Of a DNA stretch of 64,000 nt, positions 1,103 through 46,585 are shown in pieces. Within the stretch, counting starts at the first letter, position 1. Each line of letters begins with the position of its first letter. A program made the translations under genes and the position numbers. The notes under the pieces were generated by a model, which was given only the letters and a program-made list of their open reading frames with translations, did not search any database and was not told where the DNA came from. This stretch comes from a virus: positions 43,458 to 107,457 of the IMG/VR virus record IMGVR_UViG_3300029908_000004. One strand, written 5' to 3'.

Positions 1103-1324
1103 ATGAACGATAATTTGATTAAAATCTGCCGTAAATGTAAAATCCCTAAAGATCGTGACGAATTCCCGTGGAAGAACAAATCCAAAGGAATTCGCCATAA
1201 TACTTGTAAGCATTGTACACGGGACTATAGTGAAAACTATTACAAGTCAAATCAAAATGAACTATCAGAGAAAGCTAAACTACACCAAAGGGAGAAAAGA
1301 GCTGCTAAACCAAATGTGGTTTAA
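1103..1324 (+). CDS. small Cys-rich zinc-ribbon protein (73 aa)
   Basis: CxxC...CxxC pairs (CRKCK...CKHC). GAGGTG Shine-Dalgarno 6 nt upstream of ATG. One of the few plus-strand ORFs. Confidence 0.45.
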   Translation: MNDNLIKICRKCKIPKDRDEFPWKNKSKGIRHNTCKHCTRDYSENYYKSNQNELSEKAKLHQREKRAAKPNVV

Positions 1325-3048
1325 GCTTCTAATTCCTTCTCTCGTGGTTCAGCATCATAGCTATCAATAGACAGTTTCATGTCCTCAGAGAACTTTATAG
1401 CCACTTCTACTGATCTCTTGATATCTCCTATTCTAATCTCACGACCATTATCTGCCCGAGCTAGTGTTTGTGACAAACGGATGGCATTTTTGATTTGTCG
1501 TCCGTTTAGATTATAAACACTCATCTCTTTCGACCACTGTGCATTCATTTTGGCCGCTTCTAGTAGGTTGTACCAGATTTTCTCTCTCTTTTCCTGTCCG
1601 TTGTTACAGAAATGAAGTGCTACAGAGATGCGGCTATAAAATGCCTTATCAATATTCTTGACACGATTGGTGGTAAGGAAAAGTACTCCGTTGTGATATT
1701 CTAGCAAACGAAGGAAAACACCAACCATAGCATTTCTTTCGATGTCGTGCTCATCACGAGCTTCCAAGAAGATATCTGCCTCATCCAGAAGGATAACAGC
1801 ATCCCAAATCGTTGCTACCTCCAAGATATTGCGTAAATGAGATTCCAAGTGTTCTGTATCTGTTCCCAATTCTCCTACTGAGACTGAATACAGTGGCTTG
1901 TGAAGAATTTCTGCAACTGCTTCAGCAGAAGCAGTTTTACCTAACCCCGGTTCTCCATGAAGCAGGAAGATGCAGCCTCCACCTTTACCTTCAATGATAT
2001 CGGTGAATCCGCCACCATGGTATTTAACCAGAGAGTAAATCAAATCCTTACTGTCTTGATCCAACACCAGTCGATCAAAAGCATCCTCACGGAAATTGAT
2101 CTCGCTCAAGCCAGAAAGTCTTAGACGTCCCCATTCCTTAACTTGTAAGCTAAACCCCAGAAGATATGGATAACAGCGCCAATAGTCTTCTTCTTTTAAC
2201 TTGGTTTCATCTTTTTGGGTAACTTCTACTTCATCGTCGTCTTCCAAATTGATACCCAACATACGTCCACATTGGCCCCAAACGTCAGGTTTTAATCTGG
2301 AGAAGGAAACTGGATCGATTACCACACGACCAGAAGCTCTCGTTATCTTGTTCCCGAGCCAACTTGGTGATATCATGTTGCCTTCGTAATGAAGGTACCT
2401 ACCCGGTTTAGACATTGATAGAATCTTCTCTCCACGTTCGGACATGGACTTCTTCTCAGAGTCAGTGACCAACCGAATTGGTAACGAACTAATTGGTACG
2501 CTACCCGGGAATCCGTTTATTCCGAATGAATAATCATTCTCCACGATTTTGCCGCATAACCCATGTATAACCCTTAGGGAGATCCTGAATACAGGACCCA
2601 TCCATGTATAATCTATTCTTGACTTCCTGACGATACCACCAATGGCTTCTTCCCCTTGGATAACAACTTCTTTCTCTTCTGGGAAATATCTTATCATATC
2701 GTTAAGGGTAAGAACTCCGTTATCGATTCTTGCTAAGAATAATTTCTCTAACAATTCCCCCATCGACTGAATATATTTATAAAGGTCTTTACCCTTTTTG
2801 TCAGTTTTCAGCGATGTCCCCTCGTTTGATACATAGCCGTGATAAAACTGACACAATACATAGATAGGGTATCTATGACGATATATAATTGCGGCTTCGT
2901 AATCCCATACTTTTGTTAGATCGCTAAACACTAAAGTCTTTATATATTGGTCTTTAACAGATCGGAAACAGACCACTTCTTCACCAGAAATATCAAGAAT
3001 TGTGTAGAAGTCTGTTGCATTAATTAATTTCTCTGCGATTTCCATACG
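1321..3048 (-). CDS. AAA+ ATPase with large N-terminal domain
   Basis: Walker A GEPGLGKT, Walker B ILLDEAD, sensor/arginine-finger region LTTNRVKNIDKAFYSRI. Start trimmed to the internal Met (MEIAEKL) because the upstream extension of the ORF overlaps the tRNA at 3148-3232. Confidence 0.8.
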   Translation of the reverse strand, partial: RMEIAEKLINATDFYTILDISGEEVVCFRSVKDQYIKTLVFSDLTKVWDYEAAIIYRHRYPIYVLCQFYHGYVSNEGTSLKTDKKGKDLYKYIQSMGELLEKLFLARIDNGVLTLNDMIRYFPEEKEVVIQGEEAIGGIVRKSRIDYTWMGPVFRISLRVIHGLCGKIVENDYSFGINGFPGSVPISSLPIRLVTDSEKKSMSERGEKILSMSKPGRYLHYEGNMISPSWLGNKITRASGRVVIDPVSFSRLKPDVWGQCGRMLGINLEDDDEVEVTQKDETKLKEEDYWRCYPYLLGFSLQVKEWGRLRLSGLSEINFREDAFDRLVLDQDSKDLIYSLVKYHGGGFTDIIEGKGGGCIFLLHGEPGLGKTASAEAVAEILHKPLYSVSVGELGTDTEHLESHLRNILEVATIWDAVILLDEADIFLEARDEHDIERNAMVGVFLRLLEYHNGVLFLTTNRVKNIDKAFYSRISVALHFCNNGQEKREKIWYNLLEAAKMNAQWSKEMSVYNLNGRQIKNAIRLSQTLARADNGREIRIGDIKRSVEVAIKFSEDMKLSIDSYDAEPREKELEA

Positions 3049-3147
3049 AATTGTCCTTTTCTTGGAGCTGGTGACCGAAGTCGAATCGATAACCTCTACT
3101 TTACGAAAGTATTGCTCTTCCAATTGAGCTACACCAGCGTTGATATC

Positions 3148-3232
3148 TGGAGCGAGAGACGGGATTTGAACCCGCATGTCTTTCAACGGTAGCTTGGAAG
3201 GCTACTGACCAACCGAGTAGGTCATCTCCCGC
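3148..3232 (-). tRNA. tRNA-Gly (anticodon UCC) with atypical 13-nt variable arm, CCA encoded
   Basis: Acceptor GCGGGAG/CTCTCGC with U73, as in bacterial tRNA-Gly. D-arm GACC-TACTCGGTT-GGTC. Anticodon arm GTAGC-CTTCCAA-GCTAC. Variable region CGTTGAAAGACAT can form a small stem (GTT-GAAA-GAC). T-arm GCGGG-TTCAAAT-CCCGT. Confidence 0.7.
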
Positions 3233-5396: not shown

Positions 5397-5679
5397 AACT
5401 CAATGTCCCCGTCTATCCATTAAATGCTTGGAACTCTGGGGTTCACTGGTTGTAATGGGTCTTTCTGTTCCCAGGTAGACCCTAACCCGGTTAATCAACT
5501 AAGAAGATTAACAATACGCTGGGGCAGAAACACTGGCTAGGCTGGAAATCATCCAGGCTGGCAGAGTGTCGATACCAACAGCGTTTACGTTAACAGTTTT
5601 GCCTGTTATTGTTGTATAGTCGTTTAACGTGAGCCTATAGCACGACCTGTCATTATTTGCAATTCATACCAAGCGAACC

Positions 5680-5770
5680 CGGGAGCGGCCCCTATGGTGG
5701 ACACTCGGGATTCAACCTCCGTGCCCTTATAATTGGTGGACCGCGAGGGAGTTGAACCCTCGTTAATGGT
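5680..5770 (-). other. two tandem tRNA 3'-end-like fragments (T-arm + acceptor 3' strand + CCA), no 5' halves
   Basis: Minus strand reads AGGG-TTCAACT-CCCT..GTCCACCA and GGAGG-TTGAATC-CC..GTCCACCA; direct repeat tggtggac on plus. No pairing 5' acceptor, D arm or anticodon arm found. Confidence 0.35.
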
Positions 5771-5803
5771 CATGCTTACAAATAAATCATACAGGTTTAA
5801 CCG

Positions 5804-7210: not shown

Positions 7211-7246
7211 ATGTAGCTCCTTTTAATGTTTGGAACTATTTATTCA

Positions 7247-7610
7247 TCTCTCGGATATGGATTGACAAAGGTATTGCCTGCACGCAGGCTGTCATTTTAA
7301 TTGTAGATAACCTTTATACTTCGACCCGAGATTCTTTGTTGCTTAAGATGTAGATTGATAAGGGAATGCCTTTTCCCGAGATGGATCCGGGAACCACTGT
7401 AGGCAACAGCTAGCTTGCGCTTTTAGATAACCCTTGTCGTTCGACCCTAAGCGGAATTTATATTGTTATGGATATGGATTGATAAGGTTATGCCTTATTT
7501 GGGTATCGAAACCCGCTGCAGGCGACAGTTAGACTTTCGTCCATCCAGATAATCCTCGTCGGTCGACCCATAACAAAGTTGTTAAAACTACTTCTTTTTA
7601 CCACCCTTAC
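7247..7610. repeat. tandem array of 3 degenerate ~120-bp repeat units, each with bipartite motif GATAAYC-N7-KTCGACCC and GATTGAYAARGG submotif
   Basis: Motif copies at 7296-7317, 7416-7437, 7538-7559 (spacing 120/122 bp). Submotif GGATATGGATTGA at 7243, 7341, 7460. Confidence 0.6.
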
Positions 7611-7826: not shown

Positions 7827-7905
7827 TGGTGGATCGTATGAGAATCGAACTCATCTGAAATCTTCTTTGCAAAAGAAGTGACCACCCCGTGCAGTCCCAC
7901 AACCC
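7827..7905 (-). tRNA. tRNA-Ala (anticodon UGC), CCA encoded
   Basis: Acceptor GGGTTGT/ACGATCC including the G3:U70 Ala identity pair. Anticodon arm CTTCT-TTTGCAA-AGAAG. T-arm ATGAG-TTCGATT-CTCAT. Confidence 0.75.
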
Positions 7906-7911
7906 ATTTAT

Positions 7912-8442
7912 ATGCCAATTCGTAACTGTTTATATTGTAACAAACTATTTGATGCTCCACAACGTGATATTACCAGAGGTAATGGTAAATACTGTTCCAG
8001 GAAATGCTCTGGAAACTATAAGAGCTCTCTTCCTAGTAAAGCTCCTATTATAGAGCTTACTTGTGCTTATTGTAATAGTACATTTACTAAGCCTTCCAGA
8101 TACGTTAGAAAAGCCAATTCTAGAAGCGGATTGCGCTTTTGTAACCGTAAGTGTAAAGAACTTGGACAGCGATTAGACGGTGGTAACATAAAAGCTATAC
8201 AACCATCTCATTTTGGCACAGGTACCGGAGAACACCATTATAGAGCAAAAGCTCTAAACGCATTCCCAAATAAGTGTAATAGATGTGGATATGATGAATT
8301 AATAGGGATCCTTGTTGTACACCACAAGGATCGTAACCGTTCCAATTCTCATCTATCAAACTTAGAGATTCTGTGCCCAAATTGTCACGCTAAAGAACAT
8401 TACATTAATCACGATGGATCGTATAGCTCAAAGAGAAAATGA
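7912..8442 (+). CDS. HNH homing endonuclease with N-terminal zinc-finger repeats
   Basis: HNH motif VVHHKDRNRSNSHLSNLEILCPNCH plus repeated CxxC pairs. Opposite strand to neighbours, directly adjacent to tRNA-Ala and the repeat array. Confidence 0.8.
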   Translation: MPIRNCLYCNKLFDAPQRDITRGNGKYCSRKCSGNYKSSLPSKAPIIELTCAYCNSTFTKPSRYVRKANSRSGLRFCNRKCKELGQRLDGGNIKAIQPSHFGTGTGEHHYRAKALNAFPNKCNRCGYDELIGILVVHHKDRNRSNSHLSNLEILCPNCHAKEHYINHDGSYSSKRK

Positions 8443-8541
8443 TGCTGCTTTGCAAGAGCATTGCTCTCCCGAATGAGCTAAGAGCCCACGTCGTGCTTTC
8501 CTATTTAGTATACCACCAAATGTTGGAAAACACTAGAATCT

Positions 8542-8700
8542 TTAATCTCTTTCTCTTTCTCTTTCGCGACTCAACGCCTTCTGTTCGCGAGACCACCAGA
8601 ACTTCCATGAAACACTTCTACCATCGTAGTACCAGCCAAGCGCTTTCAAACGTTCGTACGTTTCTGGTGAGGTTCCTGTCTTCTTAAGTTCTTCTGGCAT
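8542..8700 (-). CDS. small protein (52 aa), not in supplied ORF track
   Basis: ATG with GAGGA SD 7 nt upstream; ends in an RE-repeat tail (SREREREGD). Confidence 0.4.
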   Translation of the reverse strand: MPEELKKTGTSPETYERLKALGWYYDGRSVSWKFWWSREQKALSRERERERD

Positions 8701-8802
8701 TTTCTTTTCCTCATCTTGGGATTTTAGTGGAGTAGCCCGGCTATCCGCGTCGGGCTACCCCGGTTAATTTGATGTCAAACCTAAATGGTTTTAACAAATT
8801 AC

Positions 8803-8960
8803 GGTAGTTGTATAAACACGTGTCTGGAACTACGATTGTTTACGTTAATCTCGGTGCTTTACCATTGAGCTACTCAGGCATATGTTTTGGGGCCCGAGGA
8901 GAGCATCGAACTCTCATACCCGATTTTGAAAGAAATCGTCTACCAGATGTTGTTTCTACC
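8803..8960 (-). ncRNA. candidate Y RNA (YrlA-like) with circularly permuted tRNA-like module
   Basis: Minus strand 5'->3' in order: T-arm GAGAG-TTCGATG-CTCTC, acceptor-3' CTCGGGC, loop CCCAAAACATAT, acceptor-5' GCCTGAG, TA, D-arm GCTC-AATGGTAA-AGC. Flanks pair as an interrupted helix GGTAG/CTACC, AAACA/TGTTT, TCTGG/CCAGA, CGATT/AATCG. Confidence 0.4.
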
Positions 8961-9333
8961 AAGTGAACCTCTTGGGTAATAGATTAACGTTAAACTTAAT
9001 CGTTTATTTAACCTGACCCTGAGGTTGAAAGAATCCTTGCGGACTCTTCCCAAGCTTGTTAGTTATTAGCCACTTTGTCTTTGTACTTAAGACCGGGCTT
9101 ATTGCGTTTGTCCATCTTTTTCTTTGCTGATGCAATGTGTTTCTGCTTGTTACTGAACTTCATTGTACCACCTCTATAAAACATTTCTCCTACGGCAAGA
9201 AGACGAATCTTCTAGGTGGTAACATCGCATTAAACCCACGACTCTTGTTGGTTATGACCCAACCTCCGTTTACTACGTCCGTGCGACTAGTTCGTAGCGA
9301 CCTCGGGGATTCCGTCCTATAGGAGAAAACTTA

Positions 9334-10092
9334 TTATGCTAATGGAACAAGGATATAATCCATCAGCTTCTTGCCAATCTTTGAGCTTGATACGTCAATG
9401 TCCTGCTCATTGGCGCGGGCTCTTGCCTTCTTGACGAATCTTGACAGGTTTTCAACCCTCTCCAGAAGTGAAGCTTTCATAACTGGAGTCAACATTGAGG
9501 ACCATTCCTGAGTTCTCAATAGACCTGTTGCAATGGTTTCTTCCAGAATTTGACACTGTGCTGGATGTTTGTCTGTAGCCGGGTACAGAACTAGTGGTTT
9601 CTTTACAAGTGTTTTGCGCTCTGATTCCACGTCTCTCGCTTGATAGATTCCTACTGAGCGGTTATCGTCTTGCTTGAACCCTTTTGTTGGATCAAGTGTT
9701 GGAATAGCTGTCAGAAGAACCTGAACTTCCTTCAACCTCTTTTCCAACTGCAATAGACTTGTGGCGGGGACATCCTTCAGGATTGTGTTTCCGTCATCGT
9801 CTACCACATCTGCTCTTGCTTGAGTATTTGCTACATCAACCTGATGTGACAGGTCAATACTCTTGATCTGGAATGCCGACCACCACAACAGTTCATCTTT
9901 CACTGTTGTCTGAATCTCTGACACTTCCTCGATCTTGACTGGTGCACCTTCTGTATAAGCAGAGTAGGTCTTACGAATCTCACTGAAATGAGATCTTTTC
10001 TTCTCGAAGGTGGCCTCTAATTCAGTCCGTGTTTTTGCGGCTTGATTTTCCAAATTCTTCTCAACCGCTAGTAACTCATGTAGCTTTGGCAT
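9334..10092 (-). CDS. hypothetical protein (252 aa)
   Basis: Intact ORF with a GAGG SD; no motif recognised. Confidence 0.55.
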   Translation of the reverse strand: MPKLHELLAVEKNLENQAAKTRTELEATFEKKRSHFSEIRKTYSAYTEGAPVKIEEVSEIQTTVKDELLWWSAFQIKSIDLSHQVDVANTQARADVVDDDGNTILKDVPATSLLQLEKRLKEVQVLLTAIPTLDPTKGFKQDDNRSVGIYQARDVESERKTLVKKPLVLYPATDKHPAQCQILEETIATGLLRTQEWSSMLTPVMKASLLERVENLSRFVKKARARANEQDIDVSSSKIGKKLMDYILVPLA

Positions 10093-13529: not shown

Positions 13530-15230
13530 TTACTCCGCTTCTGCTTCTTCAGTTTCCAATACTTCCGTTTTCCCTGAAACGAATTGGGCAATCAACGAAG
13601 GCACATTGGTATCGAATCCAACCACGTCCAACGAACGTACATCGTTTGGATCTGCGATCGAGAATCCAGTTGCTGTCATCCCGATGACAATCTGATGAGC
13701 GTTACGTCCAGAACTCTGACGATAGCTCTCCAAAGCGCTAAATACGTGTTTAGGTCCTGCCCAAGTCTCGTTGTCAGTGATGTTGACAAACACATCGACT
13801 GGCATCTTCTTTTCTTGTGCATCCTTATATGGAAGTGAACAATCTGTTCCTCCCCACCCTGTGCGTAGTGCCTTGGATATTGCTGCGTCTAGCTTCATGG
13901 ATTTAACCAATCCAACATCAATCATCTTGGTGTTGTAGGAAGCAACGTGATGCCATGGCTCATTATGCATGATTACCATAGCCATTGCTACTGCACCCAT
14001 GATTGGTGACATGTTTGGACAACCAACAAGATTTCCCCATCCCATTGAGCCGGAACAATCCAAGCCAATGTAATAGTTCAAATTGGTGGTTTCAGCATTC
14101 TTAAACGTCTTATAGAACGCTGCGTCCATAGCATCCAAAACTGGTTTCACCACTGTCCAAGTCAACGAGCCACGAATGCCATGACCAGTTTGATAGGTTA
14201 ACATAGCATTCAGAACAGTTAGTGGGTGAACACGACTACGTTGCAGATATTCCTGATCCGACAGACGTGTTACTACTAGCTTTGACGCCTCTGATAGAGG
14301 AGCTAACAGCTTGATGCTACTCATCTTACCAAGGTTCCTGATCATTGCGTTCATGGGCATTTTCTGAAGCAATGCCTCCCAAACTGCAACGTGGTTCAAT
14401 GCCTCTGTAGGGATCATTTCGCGAGTGAGGTTGTACTTCTGAATCGCTGAAATGATTACCTTTGGGTCTTTTTCATTCTTCATTGCCTCGAACTGCTTAA
14501 TCAGTTCTGGCAAGTCCTTCTCTAAATCGGTTGCTCCGTGCAGACCTTTGGTAGCCCAATCAAACAAGGCTTTCTGCCCATTCGACAACGTAGCATGGGT
14601 ACCTGCATGGGTGGCACGAAGGATGTCGCGATGGCTCCATCCTTGTGTTCCATCCACACGCCGTGATTGGTATTTCACCATCTGATAAGCCAGTTTCTGC
14701 TCATCTTTCTGTGTGTACCAATCTGCTACGCCGTTGCGTAGTGACCTATTCCAACGCATCTTTGCGGCACCTTCGGCCTGTTTTGACCGCATGCCTTTCA
14801 GATATTCCATTAGTTGGAACAAATGCGTTCCGATACGTGCTACGTCTGGCAGTTTATCCAAGGCGTAACCACGAGTGGATTTGTCACCGAATGCTATACA
14901 CTGTGCCAACGCGAACAGGGCATAGTCATTCTTTGGAGCCCGGCCAGATACAGAGATATCGACAATCGTTTTTACTGTCTTCTCTCCATCTGCCGAAATA
15001 CAGCGTTCAACGCACTTTGCGTTGTCACGCGTCAACTTGTCGGCACCAACATAATAAGTGCCACCTTCGCTTCCAAGAATTATAAATCTCTGGAGTCGGT
15101 CCCAGTCACTCAGTTCAAAAACATAACCTCCAGCGTTATTCTGAACTTGATTCTTTTCTGGGAATGGTTCACTTTGAGGAATTGTTGGCTTCATCGCCCC
15201 ATACACATTTGTTAGGTTGGGTTTCTTCAT
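13530..15230 (-). CDS. rsr: Ro60/Rsr ortholog (TROVE domain + vWA domain with MIDAS)
   Basis: N-terminal TROVE-like segment (YVFELSDWDRLQRFIILGSEGGTYYVGADKL). C-terminal vWA with MIDAS DxSxS (YYIGLDCSGSM). Length 566 aa typical of bacterial/phage Rsr. Confidence 0.8.
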   Translation of the reverse strand: MKKPNLTNVYGAMKPTIPQSEPFPEKNQVQNNAGGYVFELSDWDRLQRFIILGSEGGTYYVGADKLTRDNAKCVERCISADGEKTVKTIVDISVSGRAPKNDYALFALAQCIAFGDKSTRGYALDKLPDVARIGTHLFQLMEYLKGMRSKQAEGAAKMRWNRSLRNGVADWYTQKDEQKLAYQMVKYQSRRVDGTQGWSHRDILRATHAGTHATLSNGQKALFDWATKGLHGATDLEKDLPELIKQFEAMKNEKDPKVIISAIQKYNLTREMIPTEALNHVAVWEALLQKMPMNAMIRNLGKMSSIKLLAPLSEASKLVVTRLSDQEYLQRSRVHPLTVLNAMLTYQTGHGIRGSLTWTVVKPVLDAMDAAFYKTFKNAETTNLNYYIGLDCSGSMGWGNLVGCPNMSPIMGAVAMAMVIMHNEPWHHVASYNTKMIDVGLVKSMKLDAAISKALRTGWGGTDCSLPYKDAQEKKMPVDVFVNITDNETWAGPKHVFSALESYRQSSGRNAHQIVIGMTATGFSIADPNDVRSLDVVGFDTNVPSLIAQFVSGKTEVLETEEAEAE

Positions 15231-15314: not shown

Positions 15315-15473
15315 TTAAGAACGATTTTCTTTGGTGAGCAGCTGGGCAACCGTTTCCAGTGAATTGAAGCTTGGGACGTGGGCGTCTGGAGGCGCTGGGT
15401 GCAAACCCTTTGCCACAGCCGTCATCTCCTCACGCAACGATTTCAGCGATTGAATTTTCAACTTGCTCGTCAT
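15315..15473 (-). CDS. small GC-rich ORF (52 aa), hypothetical
   Basis: ATG with weak GGGGTG SD; GC-rich codon usage unlike neighbours; not in ORF track. Confidence 0.3.
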   Translation of the reverse strand: MTSKLKIQSLKSLREEMTAVAKGLHPAPPDAHVPSFNSLETVAQLLTKENRS

Positions 15474-15499
15474 CCTACACCCCGGATATGATGTTGCAT

Positions 15500-16110
15500 A
15501 GGGTTTGTTGTCAAGGTAACCCTACGCGTTCGACCCGTGGTCGAATTTTGTTGCTATGGATATAATACGATTGAAGGCGTTTTTATCTGCAATGATTGAT
15601 AACCTTCATTCTTCGACCCATAGCCGATATTAATAGAGTGGATATAAACAACTTTGCTGGGATATTGTTTAAATTAGCAGTTTAAGGTAACCCAACGATC
15701 TCGACCCACTCCATGATTTGATGGTGGAAAGAGGTATTGTATGTTTGGCCCAACACCGGCCTAGATATATCCGCAGTGCTGGTTTCCTCTCTTACAAATT
15801 ACCTAGTTCTAGGCACCAAATAACCGTAAGCCACCAAACTTTATTACTTCGTTTCAAAATCTTTAATATCTAGTAGATATAAATTTGACTGGATGTTTTA
15901 GAGTGTCCTGCCAATTAGACGATGCCGGTTACCCGGTAGAGAGATTCGAACTCCCATAACCCGCTCCATAGGCGATAACCCAATCGGGTCGACCCACTAG
16001 ATAAATTCATTTGCTCCCTAGGAGCGCTTTACATTCTTATGGTGTGGATATAAACAACTTAGTCAGGAAGTTTATCAAAGTAATAAGGTAATCCTAACTA
16101 TTCGACCCAA
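15500..16110. repeat. repeat-rich intergenic region upstream of rsr with 5 further copies of GRTAAYC-N7-KTCGACCC
   Basis: Motif copies at 15525-15546, 15598-15619, 15686-15707, 15974-15995, 16087-16108. Recurrent GTGGATATAAACAACTT submotif at about 15550, 15641, 16044. Confidence 0.55.
15905..16000 (-). ncRNA. second tRNA-mimic module (T-arm, short acceptor hairpin with GTAA loop, D-like arm)
   Basis: Minus strand: GGGAG-TTCGAAT-CTCTC, then TACCGG-GTAA-CCGG, then GTC-TAATTGGCAG-GAC. Flanks TATCTAGT and ACTAGATA can pair. Located 0.7 kb upstream of rsr. Confidence 0.3.
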
Positions 16111-16231
16111 ACCATTTCCTATGCGAGGAGCAATAACAATATAATAAAGAGAACTGGGTGAAGGTTCCAGAAAGCCAGAATTAGTGCTCCCTTTCCTAGT
16201 AGGGCAAGTAGAATTAGAATTAATATCATAA

Positions 16232-42872: not shown

Positions 42873-43574
42873 TTACTTACCTCTTTCCATACGCCAAAAT
42901 TCCTGTGGTAAGTCTTCTTCATTGACTCGGACAAATTGCTTATCACGATTTACATACTTTACAATAGGGCAAACACTATCAATGTGAGCTCTTACTACAC
43001 ACAATTGTTCAGCGTCACAAGAGTCTAACTGTCCAACTTCGCTGGCTTCTTTCATAAATGGTTGATCTTCTATACCCGTGGAGACGAATGGGTGTTCTTT
43101 CCACCAAGACTTCAGATACATTTGACTTGTTCCACAAGCATAAAACTCGCTTGGTGGATGGACAAATAGATCATGGTAGAACTTAAAGCATTCCTCGTTA
43201 TCTGTGTCAAAGAACAGGATGTTATGCCAACCTGTTACAGCTTTGCCTGTCTGAGCCAGTCTATCAACTTGAGCCTGAATACGATTGTCTGCGAACCAAT
43301 CATCACAGTCCCAAGTAACACAGATTTCACCGGTTGCATGTAGCGTTCCTAAGTTGCGTAAGGCCCCCACAGGCCGCTTTTCACATTGTATATAAACAAT
43401 CCTTGGGTCATTGATAGGAAGAAGATGTTGAATCTTCTTATCGTTAGGGTTGTTATCGACTACAATGAGTTCTCGGTTCTCATAGGTCTGGTTTAGGAAA
43501 CATTGAATTGCTATTTTTGCAATGTCCCCATAGTAAGCAGGCATTACACAAGAAACTTTTAACATGATTGACAT
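42873..43574 (-). CDS. family-2 glycosyltransferase (GT-A fold)
   Basis: VSCVMPAYYGDIAKIAIQCFLNQTYENRELIVVDNNPND; DxD-like CDD further on. Confidence 0.7.
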   Translation of the reverse strand: MSIMLKVSCVMPAYYGDIAKIAIQCFLNQTYENRELIVVDNNPNDKKIQHLLPINDPRIVYIQCEKRPVGALRNLGTLHATGEICVTWDCDDWFADNRIQAQVDRLAQTGKAVTGWHNILFFDTDNEECFKFYHDLFVHPPSEFYACGTSQMYLKSWWKEHPFVSTGIEDQPFMKEASEVGQLDSCDAEQLCVVRAHIDSVCPIVKYVNRDKQFVRVNEEDLPQEFWRMERGK

Positions 43575-45628: not shown

Positions 45629-46084
45629 TTATCTTGGTTCCAATCCTCTCTCTTTTAGGAGGACTCTCCAGCGAATTGATTCAATTGGATCAACGTAGGT
45701 AACGTTACACTCGCTACAAACACCTACTTTGGCGTTTTTCACAGTGAACAATACCCCGTTCTTAGCTGTTATCTCATATTCAGGAAGCACTCTTTCTATT
45801 ATGTTTCCTCTGAAACATTCTAGGCAGAAGCCACCCCAAATATGTATCTGTGGTTGGTTCGATTCGTTGGTTGGTGTTCCTTCCACTGCTGATGTACATA
45901 CCTTCAGATCGTCTTCATCGAAGACGTACTCCGAGATAGCATAGGGAGGGCCATTGTACCAGCTTGGGTTATCACTCCTATCCAGTGGAATACCAATTAT
46001 TACTCTTGTCCCGATGTCTGTGCATCTGAATGGGTTGTTATCACAGTAGAATGTTTCACCAATCTTGAAGTCAGAGAGTATCAA
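45629..46084 (-). CDS. hypothetical protein (151 aa)
   Basis: Intact ORF. Confidence 0.5.
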   Translation of the reverse strand: MILSDFKIGETFYCDNNPFRCTDIGTRVIIGIPLDRSDNPSWYNGPPYAISEYVFDEDDLKVCTSAVEGTPTNESNQPQIHIWGGFCLECFRGNIIERVLPEYEITAKNGVLFTVKNAKVGVCSECNVTYVDPIESIRWRVLLKERGLEPR

Positions 46085-46096
46085 TATTACCTCCTG

Positions 46097-46585
46097 CTAA
46101 TCTTCTCGGGAGGTGAATAGGCTATCAAGCCCATCACCATAGATCATCTTTGCTTCTATCTGTTGTAGCTCAGCAGGAGTGAATTTGACGAAGGATTCAG
46201 TCTCCACTTTCTTGTCTTGAACCGCTTTGCTATACAAAACAGATTTAAGCTTCGTCTTTCCACCTGCTACAGCTTTACCATCTACCATGAAAACATAGGA
46301 GTCGGCGCTGTAGTCAGATGTTGGTGAATGAACAATCAGTTTAATCTTTCCTGACTTGCCACCGGTTATACTATCGGAGTGGTACTCACGATTGTAACCG
46401 TTTGCACATTTCTTTCTGTTATCCCTTTTCCAATCTTCACTACGTTTCATCCGTAGTTTCAGATCTCCCTTGAGGACCTTTCCTCCAGTTTTCTGATACT
46501 CTGGGTAAATCAAATCCATTAAGCCGTCGTCTACCCACGTTGATACATGGTTCCTTACTGATTCACTGATTCCTTTTCCACTCAA
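46097..46585 (-). CDS. hypothetical protein (162 aa)
   Basis: Intact ORF. Confidence 0.5.
   Translation of the reverse strand: MSGKGISESVRNHVSTWVDDGLMDLIYPEYQKTGGKVLKGDLKLRMKRSEDWKRDNRKKCANGYNREYHSDSITGGKSGKIKLIVHSPTSDYSADSYVFMVDGKAVAGGKTKLKSVLYSKAVQDKKVETESFVKFTPAELQQIEAKMIYGDGLDSLFTSRED

Follow-up and report, generated by a model that had tools for sequence, protein, structure and literature searches.

A family of permuted tRNA-like RNAs in phages and bacteria whose conserved genomic partner is DUF7873 and not Ro60

Results

A permuted tRNA-like RNA lies downstream of a DUF7873 gene

The window analyzed here is a 64,000-nucleotide stretch of viral DNA (positions 43,458 to 107,457 of the IMG/VR record IMGVR_UViG_3300029908_000004). 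Its minus strand encodes, at 8803-8961 and downstream of a gene for a DUF7873 protein, an RNA in which the arms of a tRNA stand in permuted order (the target RNA). Read from 8960 to 8803, its 5' part is GGUAG-AAACA-ACA-UCUGG-UAGA-CGAUU-UCUUUCAAAA-UCGG-GUAU, which runs into the T arm; its middle is (GAGAG UUCGAUG CUCUC)-(CUCGGGC)-CCCAAAACAUAU-(GCCUGAG)-UA-(GCUC AAUGGUA AAGC)-A-CCGA; and its 3' part is GAUUAACGUAAAC-AAUCG-UAGUU-CCAGA-CACG-UGUUU-AUACAA-CUACC. The original prediction had taken this RNA for a candidate YrlA-type Y RNA, of the kind bound by Ro60. The features of the locus are as follows, where L181 denotes the closest relative, a locus whose DUF7873 protein is 66% identical to that of the window and which comes from the same sample as L011, the 72% Ro60 relative.

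9334-10092, minus: gene for the DUF7873 protein (252 aa), directly upstream of the RNA
8960-8934, minus: 5' strand of the long interrupted helix (GGUAG, AAACA, UCUGG, CGAUU); seen in the minimum free energy (MFE) fold, flank-duplex z -2.4, partly kept in L181
8933-8924, minus: 5' side of the internal loop, UCUUUCAAAA; in relatives A-rich, with ...CAAA before the closing stem
8923-8920 and 8854-8851, minus: closing stem UCGG/CCGA, 4 bp, at the position of an anticodon stem; all four pairs show compensatory changes
8915-8899, minus: T arm GAGAG-UUCGAUG-CUCUC (sequence, Rfam alignment, covariation)
8898-8892, minus: acceptor 3' strand CUCGGGC; 7/7 pairs in 95 of 98 gene-adjacent modules of unrelated sequence
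8891-8880, minus: acceptor loop of 12 nt, CCCAAAACATAT as DNA and CCCAAAACAUAU as RNA, with discriminator C8891, CCA at 8890-8888 and U(-1) at 8880
8879-8873, minus: acceptor 5' strand GCCUGAG; seven pairs with the 3' strand, one of them G.U
8870-8856, minus: D arm GCUC-AAUGGUA-AAGC, preceded by a UA linker; three pairs and a C/A mismatch, G18 and G19 present
8850-8838, minus: 3' side of the internal loop, GAUUAACGUAAAC; conserved, family consensus GAUUARRCU, nearly identical in L181
8837-8803, minus: 3' strand of the long interrupted helix (AAUCG, CCAGA, UGUUU, CUACC); seen in the MFE fold, partly kept in L181

When 8803-8961 was folded alone, the MFE structure was the one originally proposed (-40.2 kcal/mol, z -2.35; 1 of 200 shuffled sequences was equally stable). 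The T arm, acceptor 3' strand, 12-nt loop, acceptor 5' strand, TA linker and D arm were all found on the minus strand where the prediction had placed them, and the 4-bp closing stem TCGG/CCGA is an element that it did not list. Its flanking helix stands in part: the named blocks GGTAG/CTACC, AAACA/TGTTT, TCTGG/CCAGA and CGATT/AATCG are all present, but rather than a helix of 40 bp they form 20 canonical pairs in four 5-bp blocks, with ~40 nt on each strand. These observations demonstrate that the permuted tRNA-like RNA is real and that its sequence is as described.

Neither ARAGORN nor the Rfam tRNA model called an ordinary tRNA at 8803-8961, and they found ten ordinary tRNAs elsewhere in the window. 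Each acceptor strand has the other as its pairing partner across the loop, and there is no anticodon arm in standard order. As judged by sequence, the bases next to the closing stem (...CAAA before it and GAUUA... after it) give no U33 context for a rebuilt anticodon loop.

Compensatory changes maintain the permuted cloverleaf

We built a covariance model, R1, from a seed of the window and six close relatives; the 92 bits with which R1 scores the window follow by construction, because the window is one of its seed sequences. RNAalifold, run on a MAFFT alignment of 11 relatives, returned exactly the permuted cloverleaf, with double (compensatory) changes at 18 of 20 pairs. Among 140 R1 hits, in an alignment fitted to that model, 95.9% of cells were paired (60.1% when shuffled), and covariation was 0.82 (0.20 when shuffled, 0.06-0.15 in slid registers). 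A model-free pattern scan and the acceptor pairing count given above agree with the covariation in this alignment. Furthermore, over 200 related loci repeat the arrangement with stems that differ wholly in sequence and are still complementary, which is more than chance would give. Taken together, covarying pairs in related loci (RNAalifold and R1 alignment) demonstrate that the permuted cloverleaf is maintained by compensatory changes.

The long helix was not recovered as a consensus by RNAalifold on the alignment of 11 relatives, and it was therefore tested in each sequence against shuffles and in L181. Across the family the flanks pair better than shuffled ones, with a median z of -1.6 (38% below -2 and 89% below 0; the window, -2.4). 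L181 shows almost no change in its T and D arms, in its acceptor loop or on the 3' side of its internal loop; its closing stem is GAAG/CUUC in place of the window's UCGG/CCGA, and its acceptor stem also differs. Of the long-helix pairs, 60-80% are retained at aligned columns in L181, and by eye a CACAGU/ACUGUG helix takes the place of the window's CGAUU/AAUCG.

These changes bear on the idea that two tandem tRNA genes are decaying here into a functionless remnant. When a single tRNA gene is duplicated in tandem, the permuted order, the N-CCA and the spacer arise inherently, and this would be a plausible origin of the arrangement. Decay itself is contradicted by the compensatory changes, which keep the stems across phages and bacteria whose DUF7873 proteins are only ~30% identical, and neither ARAGORN nor the Rfam tRNA model found anticodon arms flanking the module. 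We therefore regard a decaying remnant as extremely improbable, and the earlier statement that these are not two tRNA genes holds.

DUF7873 is the conserved genomic partner of the family

One search returned 1171 clusters of DUF7873 proteins. A viral profile scan gave 180 stretches with DUF7873 and species-representative bacterial genomes gave 519; the locus counts below refer to the best 80 of each. In the window, the T arm begins 419 nt past the DUF7873 stop codon. Two IMG/VR loci with DUF7873 proteins 32-36% identical to it have YrlA-like matches right after the gene (40.3 and 34.8 bits). A simple pattern search of the viral loci found modules of T arm, acceptor hairpin and D arm just downstream of DUF7873 on the same strand, their acceptor stems complementary and unrelated in sequence. 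R1 matched within 900 nt downstream of the gene, on the same strand, in 72/80 viral loci at a median distance of 168 nt; two of the eight misses have no sequence at that place, and 24 viral loci carry two modules. On the same strand as the gene, the module lies 34-749 nt past its stop codon.

The linkage extends to cultured phages and to bacterial chromosomes. We examined Ralstonia phiRSL1, Rhizobium RHph_TM21B, Vibrio D497, Klebsiella FBKp24, Gordonia Phendrix, Pseudanabaena PA-SR01 and Arthrobacter Mimi, and all seven have one or two R1 matches in an unannotated gap of 250-530 nt after the DUF7873 gene. The bacterial loci yielded 121 R1 hits, always on the strand of the gene and nearly all directly after it, usually as two modules. 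Bacterial carriers of DUF7873 include Streptomyces, Nonomuraea, Actinomadura, Sorangium, Myxococcus, Calothrix, Abditibacterium, Ktedonobacterales and Planctomycetota. Neighbor clustering in the viral and bacterial loci revealed no other conserved protein family near DUF7873, and no Rfam family matched the RNA at its cut-off in 20 bacterial loci. The window has the features of this family, namely the permuted cloverleaf and an internal loop that is A-rich on its 5' side and of the GAUUARRCU type on its 3' side. The only conserved genomic partner of the family is thus DUF7873, not Ro60, and it is from linkage alone that we infer a partnership between the protein and the RNA.

Several annotations at these loci deserve mention. 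In the FBKp24 genome, a GenBank feature "tRNA-OTHER, tRNA-Sup-TTA" (MW394391.1 46041-46120; 2518-2597 of our locus L177) overlaps the second module in its 5' flank and T arm, and ARAGORN likewise calls a tRNA-Stop at 46041-46120; the annotation is probably a mis-call of the tRNA mimic. The same record places a promoter in the stretch that separates the RNA from the DUF7873 gene. In Streptomyces sp. HMX87 (L228 2436-2840) an RNase P RNA gene (288 bits) lies directly upstream of the DUF7873 gene, and in several other bacterial loci tRNA genes adjoin the module; such adjacency could be chance or could hint at a link to tRNA processing.

The acceptor loop carries hallmarks of tRNA genes

Across the family the acceptor loop is long (median 18 nt). 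It opens with N-CCA in 57 of the 98 gene-adjacent modules (C-CCA at 8891-8888 in the window), U directly precedes the acceptor 5' strand in 64%, and the first base of that strand (+1) is G in 87%. The corresponding values for 453 ordinary tRNA genes of the same loci are 50% for N-CCA and 52% for U-1. N-CCA, U-1 and G+1 are features used by RNase P and in 3' maturation. For the YrlA RNA of M. smegmatis, RNase P cleavage and CCA processing have been shown (PMC4201824), and the sequence of the loop suggests that the target RNA may be processed by RNase P as well.

These hallmarks, together with the fixed position of the module behind the gene, would also suit an element that acts only in cis, in the 3' untranslated region. 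RNase P cleavage and a 3' exonuclease stop would then end the DUF7873 mRNA or punctuate a tRNA operon, much as mascRNA serves MALAT1, and the RNA would have no function in trans. In addition, the modules often lie within tRNA arrays. However, such an element would need neither a D arm with G18 and G19, nor a long stem, a conserved internal loop and a structured 5' domain; two tandem modules kept from cyanobacteria to actinobacteria and phages are likewise more than a simple signal requires, and the promoter annotated in FBKp24 lies between gene and RNA. We consider a purely cis-acting role unlikely, albeit the most credible of the alternatives that we weighed.

The gene order and the encoded CCA raise another possibility, that this is a permuted gene for a two-piece tRNA-like RNA that can be aminoacylated, like tmRNA or a split tRNA, and enters the ribosome or takes part in aminoacyl transfer. 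Its order is that of two-piece tmRNA, CCA follows the acceptor 3' strand, and U-1 and G+1 are in place. Against this, the acceptor has C3-G70 and not G3.U70, the full D stem is unlike tmRNA, there is no U33-type anticodon loop, and 8600-9200 gave no tmRNA match at E<=10; moreover, a separate permuted tmRNA-like gene already exists at 5553-5796. We judge an aminoacylated product to be very unlikely. A tmRNA-style tag frame after the closing stem was considered and rejected, as the short peptides of relatives are unrelated.

The Ro60 of the window has better candidate partners

The original prediction assigned the RNA to Ro60, and a Ro60 ortholog is indeed encoded on the same strand at 13530-15230 (Pfam TROVE 1e-39, vWA_Ro60 2e-47, NCBIfam Rsr 421 bits), 4.57 kb upstream of the RNA where 4.5 kb had been noted. 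It is at most 42% identical to actinophage Ro proteins, and metagenomic contigs as long as 215 kb also carry this protein. The region had no match in INPHARED by DNA search, near or distant, and nothing close in IMG/VR by exact 24-mer or Ro60-based scans; L011 ends before the region of the target RNA.

In a permissive Rfam scan of 8600-9200, YrlA (RF02553) was the best family match and it spanned the full-length model, but the match is weak, with 26.6 bits against a gathering cut-off of 69 (E 0.0017; E 0.18 at the scale of the whole window). Its tRNA-like part aligns well and its stem poorly. The true, Ro60-adjacent YrlAs of the phages Catera and Cashline also fall below this cut-off (36 and 42 bits). 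What remains of the assignment is the architecture, a permuted tRNA-like head with a covarying cloverleaf on a long stem made of the 5' and 3' flanks.

Published YrlA RNAs are defined by a motif close to the 5' end, GNCGAA(N0-1)G, and the published criterion for position is the strand of rsr and a distance of up to 4 kb (Chen 2014, PMC4201824). The target RNA shares the strand of Ro60, but it lies 4.57 kb from the Ro60 end and has only GACGAU; in its family the motif occurs in 4/96 modules, where 6% are expected by chance. L181 has no GNCGAA and does not keep the CGA of the target. A further element, RRUUAYC, is an unpublished criterion of our own, seen in the 15995 unit of the window (below), L011, Catera, Cashline, L138 and L146. 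It stands 20-40 nt upstream of the T arm in all Ro60-adjacent YrlA-like RNAs examined and is absent, including its GGUUAYC form, from the target and from 95/96 DUF7873-linked modules.

Ro60 and DUF7873 also have different distributions. Ro60 lies within 10 kb of DUF7873 in 2/80 viral loci and within 3 kb in 0/80 bacterial loci. In INPHARED (tblastn, single query, E<=1e-5), DUF7873 records by host name of the phage are Vibrio 29, Rhizobium 12, Gordonia 12, Klebsiella 7, Serratia 6, Arthrobacter 3, Ralstonia 2, Pseudanabaena 2, Rhodococcus 1 and Microcoleus 1; Ro60 records are Mycobacterium 212, Streptomyces 115, Gordonia 11, Microbacterium 10, a few others and Vibrio 1. At least 61 of the 75 DUF7873 records thus belong to host genera in which no phage record is Ro60-positive (a single one in Vibrio), and therefore come without a detectable phage Ro60. 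The two viral loci with both genes within 10 kb are L138 and L146. In both, Ro60 is closely preceded by RNAs of the Ro60 type (L138 11650-12460, L146 13450-13700), with a GGUUAUC/GAUUAUC element and, in L138, three to four tandem units; the two RNA classes can therefore adjoin and yet stay distinguishable.

The window itself offers a set of Y-RNA-like genes, recognized by motif and by eye.

16108, 15995, 15707, 15619, 15536, 7569, 7447 and 7327, minus: eight Y-RNA-like genes, each starting with GGGUCGA

They span 15456-16116 and 7245-7577, and five of them fill the 1-kb gap directly upstream of Ro60. Their consensus is GGGUCGA-N8-10-RGGUUAYC on the 5' side and ...AUAUCC... on the 3' side, which resembles the 5' end of human Y1 RNA (GGUCCGAAGG...GUUAUC). 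In most of them a terminal stem is followed by an internal loop with CGA(A) and an upper stem; the folded units that are not tRNA-like, a set without the 15536 unit, have z-scores of -1.7 to -4.6, except 7447 (z ~0). The 15995 unit (15872-15998) has a permuted tRNA-like domain of its own, in which the T arm GGGAG-UUCGAAU-CUCUC is joined by a D arm and by an acceptor of 4 bp with a GUAA cap. A counterpart of this unit stands in L011, 320 nt upstream of its Ro60, with GGCGAAUAG, and the Ro60-adjacent YrlA-like RNAs of Catera, Cashline, L138 and L146 share a GNCGR...GGUUAYC signature, in agreement with what has been published for phage phiLo. The whole-window Rfam scan (E-value mode) gave no second YrlA match, and Rfam YrlB reached only 16.6 bits, on one of the Y-like units. 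By their sequence and position, the eight GGGUCGA units are likely the true partners of the phage Ro60, and form an unusually large set. The Yrl1 and Yrl2 RNAs of Thermus phage phiLo, which lie directly upstream of Ro60 and carry a CGAA motif (PMC12135203), are, like other phage Y RNAs, small structured RNAs encoded in a Ro60-encoding genome; in the window their description matches the eight units and not the target RNA.

Could the target nevertheless be a genuine YrlA-type Y RNA, its stem bound by the Ro60 encoded 4.6 kb upstream and its head recruiting a partner? Besides the shared strand and the full-length YrlA match, its stem (CUGGUAGACGAUU / AAUCGUAGUUCCAG) is loosely like the lower stem of the 15619 unit (UGGGUCGAA / AAUCGUAUUAUAUCCA), and the probable relative of the phage represented by L011 and L181 also has both systems. 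The two missing elements, the unconserved CGA, the eight better candidates elsewhere in the window (five of them directly upstream of Ro60), the distance, and a family that almost always occurs with no Ro60 nearby speak against it. As far as these comparisons go, the assignment to Ro60 is probably wrong, and a genuine Ro60-bound Y RNA at 8803-8961 is improbable.

YrlA (RF02553; Salmonella, M. smegmatis and mycobacteriophages; PMC4201824) is among the closest known likenesses. Both RNAs have a permuted head and a short closing stem on a helix of paired ends, and R1 also matches the true Ro60-adjacent YrlA of Catera (37.7 bits). They differ in that the target lacks GNCGAA and GGUUAYC and its partner gene is DUF7873, not rsr. 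In addition, the DUF7873-linked family has a long acceptor loop that usually starts with N-CCA, where the Rfam YrlA consensus loop is a few nt. Its internal loop is large and conserved, it has an additional 5' domain, and its modules often come as a tandem pair.

The tRNA-like domain is probably part of a larger RNA

The interval 8803-8961 is probably the tRNA-like domain and closing stem of a larger noncoding RNA (ncRNA) of ~320 nt (~9054 to 8729), as comparison with relatives suggests. Its further candidate elements are listed below.

9054-9049, minus: candidate 5' start CUUGGG, 5' strand of a long-range helix with CCCAAG at 8971-8976 (by eye)
9044-9033, minus: small hairpin GUCC-GCAA-GGAU with a GNRA tetraloop; hairpins of relatives are capped by GGAA, GAAA, GUAA, GCAA or GCGA
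9030-8981, minus: leader with loose 6-7-nt repeats U-N-A-R-R-Y-U, such as UCAGGUU and UUAAGUU (motif enrichment)
8976-8971, minus: CCCAAG, 3' strand of the long-range helix, inside the conserved AUUACCCAAGAGG box (alignment of relatives)
8761-8729, minus: G+C-rich 11-bp hairpin with no U tract, a possible 3' end or protective hairpin (from sequence)

In the clade of the window the order is a UUYGGGUG box, the GNRA-capped hairpin, AUCCAGGCU, several heptamers and an AUYACCCRAAGG box (8980-8968 in the window). In relatives UUYGGGUG pairs with CACCCRAA, the CACCC of the second box being complementary to the 5' GGGUG, with compensating changes seen by eye (GGGG/CCCC in L094, GGGUG/CACUC in L100), and L181 retains 5/6 pairs of this helix. 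The U-N-A-R-R-Y-U heptamer occurs 8.2 times per kb in 74 leaders against a background of 1.5 per kb, and the GAUUARRCU after the closing stem is one copy of it. The idea that the heptamers resemble Leu codons or anticodon loops was dropped, as it lacks a structural context. At the position of the 8761-8729 hairpin, relatives have a similar hairpin or a tRNA gene; a terminator scan found nothing. Distant members of the family, including those of Nonomuraea and Calothrix, have an extra first module, often with a tRNA-Leu-like D arm and flanked by similar repeats. Between the DUF7873 gene and the RNA lies a 34-aa, very basic open reading frame (9062-9166, minus; MKFSNKQKHIASAKKKMDKRNKPGLKYKDKVANN), for which there is also a gene call in locus L001 and which was not seen in the relatives examined.

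The imitation of a tRNA-Leu-type D arm by the first module of two-module loci, the full set of tRNA tertiary-fold hallmarks, and the location within phage tRNA islands, a presumed counter to tRNA depletion, would also fit a free decoy. Such a sponge would draw off a host factor directed at tRNA (a defense nuclease, or a modification or charging enzyme), and DUF7873 would be a mere neighbor or a separate component. A target for such a decoy is not known, however, and the gene-RNA pair occurs in many bacterial chromosomes with no conserved neighbor, which a self-contained unit of protein and RNA fits better. A decoy independent of the protein therefore appears unlikely to us.

Other tRNA-related loci in the window

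At 5553-5796 on the minus strand, Rfam tmRNA_permuted matches over its full length with 42.5 bits (cut-off 47, E 4e-5). The locus has a T arm (GAGGG-TTCAACT-CCCTC), then GCGGTCC-ACCA and later GGGCCGC, which gives a G3.U70 acceptor, and a second mini-helix ending in ACCA lies within the spacer. ARAGORN made no call there and no tag peptide was identified; on its sequence, the locus is a probable phage-encoded two-piece (permuted) tmRNA.

At 8440-8490 (minus), an orphan 5' half resembling tRNA-Ala(UGC), with acceptor GGGCTCT, D arm and anticodon arm, abuts an HNH endonuclease gene (7912-8442, plus), and no matching 3' half was seen next to it. ARAGORN calls a tRNA-Ala at 7827-7905, with an odd D region and an acceptor different from that of the orphan half; a homing endonuclease may have disrupted a tRNA gene here. 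An 85-nt tRNA-Gly(UCC) called by ARAGORN at 3148-3232 (minus), whose best Rfam match is tRNA-Sec (36 bits, under the cut-off), may be an unusual long tRNA or one with an insert. The tRNA-rich region also encodes a 621-aa AAA+ ATPase (1321-3186, minus), whose best PADLOC matches are IetA (E 7e-13) and TRIP13-like defense ATPases.

Discussion

The explanation that we favor is that the target RNA, a member of the DUF7873-linked family, is a tRNA mimic that RNase P can process and that works with DUF7873; on the sequence comparisons above, we hold it with about even confidence. The RNA would be made with, or just after, the DUF7873 mRNA and would fold into an L-shaped tRNA mimic. RNase P would cut between U8880 and G8879, and the 3' side would be trimmed to C-CCA (8888). 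The product would be a two-piece, base-paired tRNA-like particle, comparable to the M. smegmatis YrlA RNA and two-piece tmRNA. DUF7873 would bind the stem, the internal loop or both, and the particle would be an analogue of the Ro60-Y RNA complex, showing its tRNA-shaped head to host tRNA-handling enzymes during infection, as an adaptor or a decoy.

A number of points weigh against this explanation. The confident AlphaFold2 model of DUF7873 (pLDDT 84.5; long helices and beta-hairpins) has no convincing relatives by structure or sequence in PDB or BFVD, and the family has no name; no RNA-binding fold or motif is recognizable in the protein, and, as judged by eye, Asp/Glu and not Lys/Arg are abundant in its sequence. 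Adjacency of gene and RNA could reflect co-transcription or cis-regulation and not a complex. The phage does encode a Ro60 4.6 kb away, and the GACGAU of the stem matches five of the six positions of the Ro60 motif. N-CCA is missing in 42% of modules, the covariation counts over 140 hits come from an alignment fitted to R1, and the long helix fails column-by-column alignment across the family. When longer stretches are folded, the flank helix has two competitors, a local hairpin and a leader/trailer pairing of 10 bp; we rejected the latter (ACGUUAAUCU/AGAUUAACGU), which the longer folds prefer, because it is not present in L181. The ends of the larger transcript are guesses.

Other known systems share some of these features. 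Two-piece tmRNA matures into two base-paired pieces, and it shares with the target the gene order of T arm, acceptor 3' strand with CCA, spacer and acceptor 5' strand, as well as a long helix in place of the anticodon arm. It differs in its G3.U70, tag frame and pseudoknots, all absent from the target, in lacking the target's full D arm, and in its protein partner, SmpB. In Cyanidioschyzon merolae and some green algae, permuted tRNA genes also place the 3' half first, with a spacer at the acceptor ends and flanks that pair next to the anticodon stem, and they yield ordinary tRNAs through a cut at a bulge-helix-bulge and ligation. Unlike them, the target encodes CCA and, with no U33 context, appears to have no anticodon loop that could be rebuilt. 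mascRNA of MALAT1 and the 3' tRNA-like structures of viruses are likewise tRNA mimics, recognized by RNase P and the CCA-adding enzyme, that act in the formation of RNA 3' ends; their strand order is normal, they are eukaryotic or from RNA viruses, and they have no dedicated protein gene adjacent to them.

The DUF7873-linked tRNA mimics are apparently a widespread and undescribed RNA family. Literature searches on DUF7873, on permuted tRNA in phages and on phage tRNA-like ncRNAs gave no earlier account of it; literature coverage was incomplete, and prior work on the family therefore cannot be excluded. More tentatively, and with rather less confidence than an even chance, we propose that DUF7873 and its RNA form a self-contained, hitherto unrecognized ribonucleoprotein across phages and many bacterial phyla, whose RNA is a two-piece, CCA-ended mimic made by RNase P.

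For annotation, our results indicate that a YrlA-like fold and proximity to Ro60 are insufficient to call a Y RNA; the RNA was unannotated in every cultured phage genome that we checked. The linkage is the first functional lead for DUF7873, and phiRSL1, Klebsiella FBKp24, the SEA-PHAGES Gordonia and Arthrobacter phages, Streptomyces and Calothrix offer tractable systems. As one phage carries both the Ro60 system with its eight Y-RNA-like genes and the DUF7873 RNA, the two can be compared directly. tRNA-mimic Y RNAs have so far been defined through Ro60, and the results presented here point to a second, much more widespread permuted lineage with another, uncharacterized protein partner. If the proposed ribonucleoprotein is real, it would be a third system of a protein and a tRNA-like RNA beside Ro60-YrlA and SmpB-tmRNA, acting in tRNA metabolism or in a phage-host conflict centered on tRNA.

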